A stretch of DNA of 64,000 bases from Octopus vulgaris (Eukaryota), in contig OX597834.1 of the NCBI GenBank assembly GCA_951406725.2, positions 46,066,001-46,130,000 of the forward strand, read 5' to 3'. The number at the start of each line of letters is the position of its first letter. Positions within the stretch are counted from its first letter, which is position 1. Of this stretch, positions 7,165-59,541 are shown piece by piece. The notes under the pieces are model-generated. The model ran no database searches, had not been told where the DNA came from, and saw only the letters and a program-made list of their open reading frames with translations. Position numbers and translations under genes: made by a program.

Positions 7165-7828
7165 AAATAATAGTTATCGCCATACTAATATGGCATTCTT
7201 ATAAAAATAAGAATAAAGCTGTCCGCTTATTAGCTCCATGAGGCCATCGCCTTAAGTTAGCTATTTGATACACAAACTGTATCCATATAACCTTCGAACA
7301 AGGGAGGTCAGTCGCTCCACACTACTTGACTGGCAGCTACAGACGCGTTTCGGGGTATTACCCCTTTTCAATGCAGCGTAGCCAGACCAATAGGTGTCGC
7401 TTCTGACAATCTCTGTTCGAAGGTTTTATTTACCTAGCTTCGGTGGAATACATCCACTTGTTTTCAATAATAGAAATATTTAAATTACTAAGTCTCTCTA
7501 AAAGAGGACAACGGCAGCGTTTCCGGAAAATAATAGTTATCGCCATACTAATATGGCATTCTTATAAAAATAAGAATAAAGCTGTCCGCTTATTAGCTCC
7601 ATGAGGCCATCGCCTTAAGTTAGCTATTTGATACACAAACTGTATCCATATAACCTTCGAACAAGGGAGGTCAGTCGCTCCACACTACTTGACCGGCAGC
7701 TTTATTCTGGCCTCATGGAGCTAATAAGCGGACAGCTTTATTCTTATTTTTATATTAACTATTATTTTCCGGGAACGCTGCCGTTGTTCTCTTTTAGAGA
7801 GACTTAGTAATTTTAATATTTCTATTAT
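7165..7828 (-). mobile_element. Non-coding retrozyme / Penelope pLTR-like insert: 363-nt unit present ~1.5 times plus an inverted partial copy, flanked by (TA)n
   Basis: 7165-7338 equals 7528-7701 (one mismatch seen). 7708-7828 is the reverse complement of ~7563-7609 followed by ~7467-7539. Contains a hammerhead motif. Confidence 0.85.
7336..7377 (-). ncRNA. Minimal type I hammerhead ribozyme, U3-A8 variant
   Basis: Minus strand GCUGCA-UUGAAAA-GGGGU(AAU)ACCCC-GAAA-CGCG-UC/UGUAGC: 6-bp stem I, 5-bp stem II, palindromic ACGCGU stem III, GUC triplet. Confidence 0.8.
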
Positions 7829-29342: not shown

Positions 29343-29468
29343 TTTATTATATAGAAGGAGCTTCTACAGGACTAGAACTGTTTCATTCAAAAGAAATCAT
29401 CAGGGAGCTCATGATTTCTTTTGAATGAAACAGTTCTAGTCCTGTAGAAGCTCCTTCTATAAAATAAA
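29343..29468. repeat. 58-bp near-perfect inverted repeat (29343-29400 / 29411-29468, 10-nt spacer)
   Basis: tatagaaggagcttctacaggactagaactgtttcattcaaaagaaatcat [cagggagctc] atgatttcttttgaatgaaacagttctagtcctgtagaagctccttctata. Confidence 0.95.
29358..29410 (-). ncRNA. Type I hammerhead ribozyme, canonical CUGAUGA core
   Basis: Minus strand GAGCUCC-CUGAUGA-U.UUC(UUUU)GAA.U-GAAA-CAG(UUCUAGUC)CUG-UA/GAAGCUC: stem I 6 of 7 paired, 4-bp stem III including A15.1-U16.1, GUA triplet, U.U at the base of stem II. Confidence 0.75.
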
Positions 29469-29720
29469 TATATATATATATATACGACAGGCTTCTTTCA
29501 GTTTTCGTCTACCAAATTCACTCACAAGGCTTTGGTCGGCCTGAGGCTATGGTAGAAGGCACTTGCCCAAGGTGCCACGCAGTGGGATTGAACCTGGAAC
29601 CATGTAGTTGGTAAGTAAGCTTCTTACCACACAGCCACTCCTATATATGTAGGCATTTAGATAAATAGAAGAAGAGGTACACACGAAGTATATGTGTGTG
29701 TTTGTGTGTGTGTGTGTGGA

Positions 29721-38046: not shown

Positions 38047-38385
38047 GCTTGTTTCAGTCATTTGACTGCGTCCATGCTGGGGCACCACCTTTAGTCGAGC
38101 AAATCGACCCCAGGATTTATTCTTTCTAAACCGTGTACTTGTTCTATCAGTTCTTTTGCCGAACCGCTAGGTTACGGGGACGTAAACACAGACAAACAAA
38201 AGCACACACACACACACACATACATATATACGACCAGCTTCTTTAAGTTTCCGCCTACCAAATCCACTCACAAGGTTCTGGTCGCCCCGAGGCTATAATA
38301 GAAGACACTTGCCCAAGGTGCCACGTAGTGGGACTCGGAACCATGTGGTTCGTAAGCAAGCTACTTACCACACAGCCGCTCCTAC
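38047..38385 (-). mobile_element. SINE family A, near full length
   Basis: cttgtttcagtcatttgactgcg..ccatgctgg...gacacttgcccaaggtgccacg...aagcaagctacttaccacacagcc. Confidence 0.9.
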
Positions 38386-38918
38386 TATATGTCAAACTTA
38401 GGTGTAACTGGGTGCACGTTACTATATATGTACCTATATATGTTTGTACTTTATGACTACCTGTGTTTGTGTAACTTTAGTTTCAGAGGGAACCTAGAAG
38501 ACATCCATGTCAGTATGGGGTGGGGTCCGATGATTGACATGAACAAAGTTCATGCAAAGGCAACGTTGTCAATTTCTCAGTACGAGCACATTTTAGAATA
38601 TTACACCGTATATTTGTCATTTATGTACGCCCGTAATGTACGTTGGTGTGTATACATCGATACACGTATCTTTATATTTATACATGTATATGTAAGTATA
38701 AGAAAATAAGCATTGTATTTGTATATATGTGCGTGTCTGTGTGTACTTTGTGTGTGTAAGTATGTATGTATGTGTGTGCTTATATGCATGTTTCGTTGCC
38801 ATTTAGTGACAACTGTTATCATTCGTTATAAATGAAATTATGGTCAAAAATATATTTCTTTAAAACAGATCGATATGCGTACATGTGTGCGTCAATGTGT
38901 GTCTATGTATACATATAC

Positions 38919-42735: not shown

Positions 42736-43189
42736 ATATGTATGCATATATATATACACAAACACACACGCGCGCGCGCACACACACACACACACACAAA
42801 CCGTATATTCATATATCAAATAACTAAAAAATTATCTTGGAATTGCTTGAGGCAGTGTCATAGATTTCTGACTCCGATTCTGTAATATTGGTCATGGAGT
42901 TGGGGAGGAAGGTCGGGAGTGGGGTACACACCAGATAAAATCGGTGCCGCGCTCCAAATTTGCAGAAAGTTTATAGTTCACATGATTAAGATTTCTGACA
43001 TTTTCTGTATTTAATTTTATCGCTGCAATTTCTTATGTGCGCTTTCCTGCCTTCGTACGTGCATACGTACACAAACTTTGATGTGTGCATCTACAAGCAC
43101 ACACACAAGTGCCTTCGCACACAGATACATACACACATATTTGCGTAACTGTATGCATGGATGTAGGTAGGTAGTTAAGGTAGGACTAT

Positions 43190-43405
43190 ATACTCTTTTA
43201 CGCTTTTACTTGTTTTAGTCATTTGACTGCGGCCATGCTGGAGTATCGCCTTTACTCGAGCAAATCGACCCCAGGACTTATTCTTTGTAAGCCTAGTACT
43301 TATTCTATCGATCTATTTTGCCGACCCGGTAAGTTACGGGGACGTAAACATACCAGCATTGGTTGTCAAGCGATGTTAGGGGGTACAAATACAGACACAC
43401 AAACA
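43190..43405 (-). mobile_element. SINE family A, 3' half
   Basis: ttttacttgtttt.gtcatttgactgcggccatgctggag...taagttacggggacgtaaaca..ccagcat.ggttgtcaagcgatg. Confidence 0.9.
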
Positions 43406-43554
43406 TATATATATATATATGAATATATATATATATGTATGTATTTATGTATGTATGTATGTATGTATCTATGTATGTATGTGTGTATATACATTTGTGC
43501 GTCTGTGTTTGTCCCCCAATTATATAATTATATATAATTATCATTATTATTATT

Positions 43555-47090: not shown

Positions 47091-47376
47091 TCCTTATTAA
47101 TATATATATATATATATATATATACGACGGAGTGTATACGTGTTTGTCTAATGTTATATTAAATAAGAGGATATCATTTCATATATCCATGCTTTGTATA
47201 CAGATAGAAAGATATATAAATATATATACGCATTCTTAAATATATATATATATACATGTATATAAGAAATTAAAAAAGGAAAATACGCACACTTACATGG
47301 TTTTAATATAATGTCGTTCATTTTTGGATCTCTAGTTAGTAAAGGGAGAGTTGAATACCTCACTGTTTCTGGGGTC

Positions 47377-48105
47377 AGACTTATTGAAAGACAATATCCA
47401 CCCTCTCTTATCGACGAGGGAATTAAACGTGCCAAACAATTAGAAACAAAAACACTAAGAACAAAAAATCATAGCACCACACCTCAAACCAAAACATTAC
47501 TTTTTATATCAACACACAGCCCCAGAAACAGTGAGGCATTCAACACTAATGTGCAAACTCTTCCTTTGCTAACTAGAGATCCAAAAATGAACGACATCCT
47601 GAAAACACACAAACTCATCAAATGCAAAAATCAAGACAAATCGCTAAAGAGACTACTAACAAATGCGAAGCTTTACAAAACAACCACGAAACCAACGGTT
47701 GAAAAATGTGGACGCCCGAACTGTGGAACCTGCCCCAACCTACTTGAAGGCTCGGATTTCCTTTTCAAACAGGGACAGAGGTTCAGAATTTAAACTAGTT
47801 TCACCTGTGCCTCTGAGAACCTAATTTATGTAATAACCTGCTCGTGTTGCGGTCATCAGTGCATTGGACAAACGTGTTTAACTTTGAGAAAGAGAATCAC
47901 TCTGCATAAGGAGCAAATCTGTTTCCCGCAATACAGAGAAATTCCTCTCAGTGAACACATAGAAAAATGTGCAGGTAACATCAAACCAAATTTCACAGTC
48001 TTCCCTTTCTACCAGTGCAAAGACACAATCTCTCAACTAGAACGCTTAAATAAAGAAACTTTTTTCATTGAAAAATACAAAACACGTCTTAATATGCACG
48101 CATAA
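47377..48105 (+). pseudogene. Penelope-like RT thumb / GIY-YIG ORF remnant (in-frame stop 47791-47793; YIG changed to CIG)
   Basis: ORF-track pieces 47311-47793 and 47884-48105 share a frame and are bridged by NLIY..C..C...CIGQT...R...H. Confidence 0.85.
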
Positions 48106-48384
48106 CCAACTTTTATATTTTTACATATTACATCACTGTACATAAATCCGCTACTAAACAAGGTCTTTTTTAAAACCTGTCTCTTTTTTGTACACATATT
48201 TATTCCCCACCCATTACCAAAACCTGAACAGTTATCTCCCTTACACACAACAATAACAATAATAACAACCAATTACCTCACTTTATTTGTCTACTTGTGA
48301 AGTCATTCACTCGTGAATTTCTTCACACACAACTTGGACCAAATTTCTTCTTAAGAAAAAATATATATTCATATAAATTAAACA

Positions 48385-48423
48385 GTATATCATGAATAGC
48401 GATAGCGAAACCGGTCGATATAT
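48385..48423 (+). ncRNA. Minimal type I hammerhead ribozyme, A3-U8 variant, in the Penelope 3' region
   Basis: GUAUAUC-AUGAAUA-GC(GAUA)GC-GAAA-CCGG-UC/GAUAUAU: 7-bp stem I, 2-bp stem II, palindromic ACCGGU stem III, GUC triplet, same sense as the ORF. Confidence 0.78.
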
Positions 48424-48575
48424 TAAAAATTATGTTAAAACCATGTAAGTGTGCGTACTTTCCTTTTTTAATTTCTTATATACATTACAACCCACAACGT
48501 GGGGACAACCGGAATTCCTCTTTTCTCTGTCTACTATACATGTATATATATATATGTATATATATATGTATGTGG

Positions 48576-54644: not shown

Positions 54645-54975
54645 TTTCTTTTACTTGTTTCAGTCAGCCTAGTACTTACTCTATCGGGTTTTTTTGCCTA
54701 ACCGGTAAATTACGGGGACGTAAACACACCAACATCGGTTGTCTAGCGATGTTGGGGGGGAGACAAACACAGACACACAAACATATACACACACATGCAT
54801 ATACATATATATAAATACATATATACGACGGACTTCTTTCAGTTTCCGTCTAACAAATCCCCTCACAAGGCTTTGGTCAGACTGAGGCTATAGTAGAAGA
54901 TACTTGCGCAAGGTGCCACGCAGAGGGACTGAACCCAGAACCATGTGGTTGGTAAGCAAGCTACTTACCACACAC
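54645..54975 (-). mobile_element. SINE family A
   Basis: Same conserved blocks, with an internal deletion near the tail. Confidence 0.88.
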
Positions 54976-55962
54976 ATATATAAATATATACACACACACA
55001 CACACACACACACTCACACATACAAGCGCACACACATACACATTTGCATGTATCCATGGACCTTTAAGTTTTGCCGGTGGTGGATTGCGCAAACGTACAG
55101 GCAATTATGCACATTTATATAAATACCGACATACACTCTATACGTACATATGTATGTGTGTGTATGTGTGTGTGTACTGAGAAATGCACACGCGCCTACA
55201 CACTAAGAATTACATATGTATATATATATACATATATAAAAAAAGTTATAATATACCTATGTGTCTATATCCATACATACATACATATATATATATACAT
55301 ACATATATATATACATATATATATATGTATGTATATATACGTATATATATATAAACAAGCATGTCTATTGCAACACAAAATAGGTTATGACCATATAAGG
55401 CATGTTTTTTGTTAACGATCGCGCGTCTTAACTGAATGCGTGTGTGTTTGTGTGTATATTACATCGAGACAGAGGACGGCGAAAGTGAAAGTAGTATAGC
55501 GAATGAGAAGGATAGACAGAAATAAAGAGAGAGAGACAGAGATAGAGAGAGAGACAGAGAGGAAGAAAGAGAGAGAGACAGAGAGATAGAGACAAAGAGG
55601 AAGAGAGAGAGAGAGAAAGAAATAAAGAGAGAGGTGAGAGACTGATAGATGTATGTAAAATAGAGAGAGGAAAGTGTTTCGCTTCTTTTTTTTTTGTTTT
55701 CTCTACCTTAGTTACCTGTCCGTTTCTGTGTTGAGTAGCGAAAACCGGCGTGATTCGGGTGTTGTCGTGCTGTTGAGGGGTTCGAAACTCAGGTGTATTC
55801 CAGCTATGTCTGGGTATGTGTGGGTGTTTGTGCTTGAGTGTATGTGTTATATGTCGGTGAGTAGGTGTGTGAGGATGCGTTTGTTTACGCTTGGATGTAG
55901 AGTTCTGTGTATGTTGGTATGCATGGAATGAATGTGACAGTAGTGTCATGTGTGTGTATGTG

Positions 55963-56706: not shown

Positions 56707-56824
56707 TGTGTGTGTGTATGAGACAGAGACTTTGTGGGGGACTAGTATGTGTAAAAGATATAATGCGTTTCTGAGGATAAGAAAGTACGTACGATGGTAT
56801 GGGGGGGGTCGTGTTTGTATATTA

Positions 56825-57142
56825 TTTTATTCTTTTACTTGTTGTAGTCATTTGACTGCAGCCATGCTGGAGCACCGCCTAAAAGAGTCTTAGTCGAAGA
56901 AATCGACACCAGGACTTATTTTTTGTAAGCCTAGTACTTATTCTCTCGGTATCTTTTGCCGAAGCGCTAATTTAAGGGGACGTAAGCACACCAACGTCAG
57001 TTGTCAGGCGACACAAAGACACACACACGCACATAAACTTATACGTACATATATATGTATATATATATACGACAGACTTCTTTCAGTTTCCATCGACAAA
57101 AGGTCTTGATCGGCCCGGCGTATAGAAGAAAACGCTTGCCCT
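56825..57142 (-). mobile_element. SINE family A
   Basis: ttttacttgttg.agtcatttgactgcagccatgctggagcaccgcct...cttctttcagtttcc. Confidence 0.85.
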
Positions 57143-59149: not shown

Positions 59150-59541
59150 GTTACTCTTTTACTTGTTTCAGTCATAGGACTGTGGCCATGCTGGAGCACC
59201 GCCTGTAATCGAGAAAATCGACCCCAGGGCTTATTCTTTGTGAGCCTAGTACTTATTCTAACGGTCTCTTTTGCCGAACGGGGACATAAACACACCAGCA
59301 TCGGTTGTCAAGTGATGTTGGGGGAACAAACACAGATACACAAACGTATACACACATATACATATATATGCATATATACGACGGGCTTCTTTCAGTTTTC
59401 ATCTACAAAGTCCACTCAGAAGGCTTTGGTCGGCCTGAGGTTATAGTAGAAGACACTTGCCCAAGGTGCCACGCAGTGGGACTGAATCCGGAACCATGTG
59501 GTTGGTAAGCAAGCTACTTACCACACAACCACTCCTGCGCC
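59150..59541 (-). mobile_element. SINE family A, full length
   Basis: Minus-strand head ggcgcaggagtggttgtgtggtaagtagcttgcttaccaaccacatggttccggattcagtcccactgcgtggcaccttgggcaagtg through to the aaacaagtaaaagag tail. Confidence 0.92.

Follow-up and report, generated by a model that had tools for sequence, protein, structure and literature searches.

Hammerhead motifs in the pseudo-LTRs of Penelope-like elements (PLEs) were described by Cervera and de la Pena (2014, PMC4209133) as type I motifs on the sense strand behind the RT-EN ORF, with a G10.1-C11.1 pair, a palindromic stem III and a predicted dimeric form. The motif at positions 48385-48423 of the 64,000-nucleotide stretch of DNA analyzed here (the window) shares the type I topology, the place and strand, the G10.1-C11.1 pair and the palindrome, and its bare sequence is predicted to fold as a dimer. 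It differs in that no base lies between positions 9 and 10.1, as is also the case in two motifs of Fig. S3 of that paper, and in that its stem II has 2 bp, compared with 4-8 bp in most of the described motifs. It also differs in the core, where positions 3 and 8 are A and U, a combination present in 0 of the 56 motifs of Fig. S3, two of which carry U3-A8 and one U3-G8. Another minimal PLE motif, from the anole Poseidon element PAc (Frangieh 2024, PMC11167929), likewise belongs to an element with two ends that define a tail, but it has a C3-G8 core, comes from the Penelope/Poseidon clade, contains the start of an ORF in its stem II and has been shown to be active, whereas activity of the window motif is putative.

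Natural exchange of the 3-8 pair has a precedent in the U3-A8 core variant (Perreault 2011, PMC3088659), of which about 1,300 matches are reported in the Cercyon elements of Schistosoma (PMC4209133). Both U3-A8 and A3-U8 are natural covariations that keep the Watson-Crick pair; two transitions by way of a U-G wobble lead to the former, whereas the latter takes two transversions through a mismatch and places a purine at position 3. Any Watson-Crick 3-8 pair is said, in work by Przybilski and Hammann, to be compatible with activity in two type III ribozymes, with one of them favoring a pyrimidine at position 3. Strong rescue was reported only for G3-C8 by Roberts 2023 (PMC9901934), with other core double mutants of the one type III construct showing low activity. 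Such engineered swaps (Przybilski and Hammann 2007; Roberts 2023) affect the same positions, but they were made in the laboratory in type III ribozymes that have tertiary contacts, whereas the window motif represents a natural, family-wide state of a minimal type I motif. Our search of the accessible full-text literature retrieved no description of a natural A3-U8 hammerhead; the main survey of small PLE variants (Lunse et al. 2017) lay outside that search, so that absence from print is not established. A3-U8 extends the known 3-8 covariation and is not a new mechanism.

The segment 48385-48423 is a minimal type I hammerhead motif with an A3-U8 core, a three-way junction with its ends in stem I (Table 1). 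A preliminary description had read there a 39-nt fold with the core AUGAAUA, a 2-bp stem II, a GAUA loop, GAAA, ACCGGU and GUC, and all of these letters are in place; the motif also lies where that description had put it, about 280 nt downstream of the GIY-YIG ORF and in the same sense (279 nt after the ORF stop at 48105). The Watson-Crick 3-8 pair, U4, G5, A6, A9, GAAA and UH are all present, both in the window and in the family, as are G10.1-C11.1 and a palindromic 15.1-16.1. The literal CUGANGA core is absent and AUGAAUA is found instead in the window and the family, and the motif is therefore counted as a variant. The base between positions 9 and 10.1 in the consensus CUGANGAH is absent here and in the related loci L055, L060, L067 and L083. 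The outermost stem I pair of the window copy is G-U, and the cut site is predicted between 48416 and 48417, i.e., after C17.

Table 1. Parts of the hammerhead motif and of the element that carries it (positions in the window).
Feature	Positions	Strand	Remarks
Inverted copy of the 3' terminal region	47256..47312	-	Reverse complement of 48429-48485, 96%
Inverted ORF pieces at the 5' truncation junction	47311..47374	-	From 47556-47597 and 47520-47547
RT-EN ORF, 3' part	47380..48105	+	Sequence following the RT core, CX4CXXC linker, GIY-YIG endonuclease (CCHH residues)
Stem I, 5' strand	48385..48391	+	Family-wide at 48387-48391 (A and G, both able to pair, occur at 48387); G at 48385 private to this copy; 48386 polymorphic
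Core A3 U4 G5 A6 A7 U8 A9 (AUGAAUA)	48392..48398	+	A3 = 48392, U8 = 48397
Stem II, 2 bp, with variable 4-nt loop	48399..48406	+	48399-48400 with 48405-48406: G10.1-C11.1, then C-G; loop GAUA; nothing inserted between 9 and 10.1
G12 A13 A14 (48407-48409), palindrome ACCGGU (48410-48415), C17 (48416)	48407..48416	+	
Stem I, 3' strand	48417..48423	+	Partner of 48385-48391
Rest of the terminal region	48424..48526	+	Donor-like GTAAGT at 48445; (TA)n after

When positions 3 and 8 were unconstrained, a descriptor requiring at least 4 bp of stem I matched the 64-kb window twice, at the present motif and at a U3-A8 motif at 7371 on the minus strand; with at least 5 bp of stem I, it gave no match in 60 dinucleotide-matched simulated windows. 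Both real window motifs have a stem I of 6-8 bp. The monomer fold was no stabler than shuffles (z = -0.07), and the Rfam covariance models returned no hammerhead match up to E 10 in 48300-48520, outcomes that are expected for a minimal variant and give no support. An Rfam scan of the whole window likewise had no hammerhead among the best 150 of its 621 rows, almost all of which were matches of microsatellites to miRNA models.

The element was identified from the RT-EN ORF, which matches the RT-EN protein P0003, its nearest relative, at 58% over residues 416-655 (E 9e-84). The RT core is missing from the truncated window copy and present in P0003. The ORF is interrupted by an in-frame stop at 47791-47793 and has a Cys for the Tyr of the YIG motif, and its match to GIY-YIG is weak (E 7e-4; 20.3 bits, under the Pfam cut-off of 22.6). 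The earlier assignment to a Penelope-like element is borne out by the RT-EN match, the linker, the CCHH residues and the tree. A CX2-5CxxC linker together with CCHH is given as a feature of Neptune and Nematis elements (PMC8557442), and the element appears to be a Neptune-type EN+ PLE, a clade name that comes from the linker motif, whose reduced form occurs also in Nematis, since the tree contains no named references. Among the 120 proteins listed, the named eukaryotic relatives are from bivalves, which makes a molluscan host likely. PLE proteins of animal type were also filed under bacterial symbionts or metagenome-assembled genomes (P0021, P0032, P0040, P0049, P0083 and P0109; L001-L054), most likely because of host contamination.

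The window copy is a dead, 5'-truncated insertion, set in AT-rich, microsatellite-rich DNA. It combines 5' truncation, an inverted 5' piece, a tail and a (TA)n target, with (TA)n tracts flanking the element and its inverted pieces, and such an inverted arrangement is known for PLE insertions (PMC8557442). The inverted terminal piece begins 12 nt 3' of the predicted cut site and is without hammerhead, so the locus holds a single one. As the locus is dead and has one hammerhead, any selection would have acted on master copies. Contigs of the family diverge from the window at 48482 and 48526, at distances of 66 and 110 nt downstream of the cut site. These two points suggest that the element has a main end and a 44-nt tail, in the sense in which a tail has been defined for PLE ends (PMC11167929).

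Copies of the family were taken from contigs of sequencing runs that aligned to 48345-48530 at 80% likeness, so copies less alike are invisible to the comparison. There were 2,288 such contigs, from 4 of the 24 listed runs and from organisms A, B and C, organism D being left out: X1 (A, 661 contigs), X3 (A, RNA by guess, 38), X6 (B, 898) and X8 (C, 691). The depth of a contig served as a rough weight and not as a copy count. Summed depth over the motif was 20,000-290,000, compared with 5-68 for long single contigs (X1, X6 and X8), which suggests thousands of family copies, although depth does not measure copy number. An X3 contig has its end at 48416; because contigs cannot show RNA ends, it was not taken as a sign of cleavage. 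The junction of the inverted piece at 47256-47312 was also seen in one X3 contig.

The preliminary description had proposed checking whether ATGAATA is the family consensus. A3 and U8 proved to be the family state in organisms A, B and C, and a CTGANGA consensus was not found; the pair that the description had explained as a double transversion preserving 3-8 pairing is kept family-wide. No alternative letter was detected at A3 (48392) at the 3% threshold in any of the four runs. The only change seen at U8 (48397) was T>A, which accounts for 0.23% of depth in X1, is absent from X6 and X8 (0% each) and occurs in a single X3 contig (3.7%); U4 was altered in one X3 contig. Neither C3 nor G8 (A>C, T>G) reached 3% in any run. 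The loop of stem II, on the other hand, is variable, with T>A at 48403 in 8-11% and A>T at 48404 in 14-34%. The stem I partners 48387 and 48421, each counted separately, changed only in ways compatible with pairing (A>G, 15-21%; T>C, 0.4-6%). Change at 48405 breaks the outer stem II pair in 2-9% of depth, and 48417 is altered in 1-5%. The 7-bp stem I of the preliminary description holds for the window copy and fails as a family feature: about 99% of family depth has T at 48385, where the window has a private G, and 26-74% has A at 48386, so the shared stem I has 5-6 bp. Core and palindrome together had 0 of 19 positions variable, versus 3 of 4 in the loop (X1, X6 and X8; p = 0.002, with groups picked after the data were seen); against the rest of 48360-48499 (20/117, four private sites dropped), the difference is smaller (p = 0.04, groups again post hoc). 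Contigs with other upstream sequence join the family at 48387 in X1, X6 and X8, so that a second subfamily appears to share the motif.

Related elements were compared by means of an alignment of 35 proteins, which fetched 54 + 78 loci (132), the second set coming from the best 80 of 445 confirmed. In these loci the descriptor, again unconstrained at positions 3 and 8, found 35 matches, 27 of them distinct, all on the sense strand and all Watson-Crick at 3-8 (19 C-G, 7 U-A, 1 A-U and 0 G-C). The 27 motifs are not independent, since a single metagenome project supplied the contigs of all seven U-A motifs and of the A-U motif. A tenfold control scan gave two matches, both mismatched at 3-8, and relaxing stem I to 3 bp added one motif, with a U3-G8 wobble. 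The earlier statement that A3-U8 is rarer than U3-A8 agrees with these counts (1 versus 7 among the 27 distinct motifs). Several near relatives with bulged or short stems escape the strict scan; inspected by eye, they are C-G, U-G or U-A. The 3' regions of L001, L057 and L063, for example, contain hammerheads that strict descriptors miss because of a bulged base beside C11.1 in stem II. Sister PLE families with C-G, U-A and A-U cores were observed within the one metagenome project (L132 4225-4266, L097, L098, L108, L117-L120 and L123), a set well suited to following how the 3-8 pair switches.

A quick tree with 37 rows places the window element in an 18-row clade (support 99) in which the located motifs are mostly C-G; the motif comparison leaves out its three closest relatives, which are available as protein only. 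L055, from the same clade, is the closest relative in which a hammerhead of this build was located, and its core is C3-G8; it forms a complete tandem unit, 3,699 nt long, that includes ORF1 and RT-EN. Like the window motif, the motifs of L055 and L083, both Neptune-type relatives on metagenome contigs, have no insertion between 9 and 10.1, a 2-bp stem II, a 4-nt loop and ACCGGU; unlike it, they have C3-G8 and U17. The second A-U motif, that of L132, belongs to a distant clade, as sister to a C-G element (support 100). If L132, which is represented by one copy, is not an accident, A3-U8 would have arisen at least twice. At L055 1294-1375, the ORF1 and RT-EN frames overlap with no RT-EN start codon in the overlap, just after a T run in GATTTTTTAG, probably a frameshift as described for some PLEs.

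Searches for loci with a single protein and in viral contigs gave no relatives, and pattern scans of the prokaryote and viral collections gave no further credible A3-U8 motif. Among the 19 genome-contig matches of a first A3-U8 pattern, only one had a 4-bp stem I, and it was rejected as it lay inside a bacterial coding sequence, presumably thiolase-like. A second A3-U8 pattern gave 102 + 3 matches, of which not one had both stems or lay near a PLE ORF. A U3-A8 pattern matched to the first gave 106 matches, five of which had a stem I of at least 4 and a stem II of at least 6, as judged by the pattern only.

The predicted minimum-energy fold of two bare copies of the window motif is exactly a double hammerhead (-18.7 versus 2 x -5.3 kcal/mol), which fits the dimer model and the low activity reported for PLE hammerheads (PMC4209133). 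Once 25 nt of flank are included, the core is predicted to be sequestered in an upstream hairpin, both in the monomer and in the dimer, and in the predicted monomer A3 can mispair with U16.1. For the A-U motif of L132, the predicted two-copy fold is not a double hammerhead.

In active copies arranged in tandem, a single transcript would carry the motif twice; pairing between the two ACCGGU palindromes would give a common stem III, and stem I would likewise join one copy to the other. A3 would hold U8 by a Watson-Crick pair and thereby place the 2'-OH of residue 8 at the leaving group, with G12 acting as the base. The positioning of the residue 8 2'-OH at the leaving group and the role of G12 as base are established hammerhead chemistry. 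Cleavage after C17 would then free unit-length RNA, probably with the help of the element's protein, as in PAc. G8 is reported to work through its 2'-OH, held in place by the pair with C3, and a G-C swap to rescue partly (PMC8495972), and hence an A-U pair could serve. Activity as a dimer (PMC4209133) and with the assistance of protein (PMC11167929) has been shown for other PLE hammerheads. The swap would have comprised two transversions through a mismatched intermediate, with the second change restoring the pair; the intermediate may have been survivable because the PAc motif, which cleaves only with protein, is dispensable as a cleaver for insertion in vitro (PMC11167929).

We put at about 0.6 the probability that the A3-U8 motif of this family still cuts RNA, slowly and as a dimer, and that this cleavage is under selection. 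As judged from the sequences compared, A3-U8 is real, family-wide and rare, and is likely to have been kept by selection. The suggestion of the preliminary description that A3-U8 reflects selection on ribozyme function is upheld as to selection, and indirectly, by a core that stays constant next to a loop that varies and by strict maintenance of the 3-8 pair from family to family. Against a selected ribozyme speak the stem II of only 2 bp and the fact that one fixed pair in one family is one event, with 3 of 9 double changes being Watson-Crick by chance. In addition, the PAc study reports no RNA ends at the PAc cut site in vivo (PMC11167929).

Decay of a C3-G8 motif in this one copy, or a chance match, might have been suspected in a dead copy with private changes at 48385, 48434, 48458 and 48496, but the lack of C at 48392 and of G at 48397 at the 3% threshold in all four runs already refutes such decay, the simulated windows speak against chance, and we leave this explanation next to no probability. 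The motif could instead be a passenger: the ribozyme would be dead in the master lineage, the A3-U8 pair would be due to chance, and the motif would be copied unchanged in a young family. Naiads, which lack canonical hammerheads, are reported to thrive (PMC8557442), insertion of PAc in vitro does not depend on cleavage, swaps other than G-C showed low activity (PMC9901934), the core differs from all flanking sequence at only p = 0.04, and the predicted upstream hairpin competes with the fold. However, changes common at the subfamily level have accumulated in loop 2 and the outer stem I and at none of the 19 core positions, a subfamily with different upstream sequence appears to retain the motif, and the 3-8 pair is kept in 27/27 related motifs from the 132 loci; we consider a passenger unlikely.

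The fold and its 3-8 pair may also have been kept as a protein-binding or folding element near start sites of reverse transcription, with cutting minor or absent. The family ends 66 and 110 nt behind the cut site resemble the internal start sites behind the PAc hammerhead, and PAc RNA is used uncut, its motif needing protein to cleave (PMC11167929). Yet G12, A13, A14 and C17 are invariant, as they would be in a catalyst, and PAc templates truncated into the motif still insert (PMC11167929), which makes such a role decidedly improbable in our view. We give still less credence to a dual use of the core, in which an active ribozyme centre would double as a start codon: A3-U4-G5 would be fixed as an AUG that opens either an upstream frame of 18 codons or a first exon that is spliced, U8 would compensate, and the AUG would have shifted within its frame, from core positions 6-8 to positions 3-5. 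If true, self-cleavage would strip the translation start from the RNA of a retroelement and act as a switch. The frame is indeed open from 48392 to 48448 and ends over the donor-like GTAAGT, no common variant adds a stop, core positions 6-8 of the nearest motifs of the same build (L055 and L083) read AUG in that frame and open 7-9 codons, one X3 contig diverges near the donor, and the ORF of PAc starts inside its motif (PMC11167929). But that X3 contig diverges after 48447, three letters past the splice point; of the 30 motifs listed, just one other has a donor-like site within 60 nt; AUG is missing from many related cores; the core AUG of L132 opens just 6 codons, out of frame with the next AUG; and in the long ORF1 frame of L055 the first AUG lies 136 nt behind the core, outside the motif. 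The peptide predicted from the AUG begins 0 of 123 listed protein N-termini, a weak test because these are RT-EN proteins and mostly unspliced calls.

The A3-U8 family amounts to a natural compensatory experiment at a pair of the catalytic core, fixed in a high-copy family in three species, and a pair restored after two transversions argues for selection. Whether PLE hammerheads are selected for cleavage is regarded as an open question (Craig 2021; Frangieh 2024), and A3-U8 bears also on the conflicting laboratory results over which 3-8 pairs work. Standard descriptors (CUGANGA, UUGANAA) and Rfam miss an A3-U8 core, and therefore elements listed as hammerhead-free may hold such cores.

The window contains further repeats. 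A dispersed repeat that spans a few hundred bases and may be a SINE or MITE occurs in at least seven copies with 75-89% identity (3-316, 29464-29650, 38048-38392, 43185-43436, 54663-55042, 56818-57101 and 59151-59536). Another minimal hammerhead, unrelated to the first, lies at 7337-7378 on the minus strand and has a U3-A8 core and a 5-bp stem II. It is hosted by a short non-coding PLE-like insertion at about 7165-7828, which comprises a 174-nt direct repeat (99%) and inverted pieces and is set in (TA)n. Two non-canonical 3-8 pairs, A3-U8 and U3-A8, are thus found within one 64-kb window.
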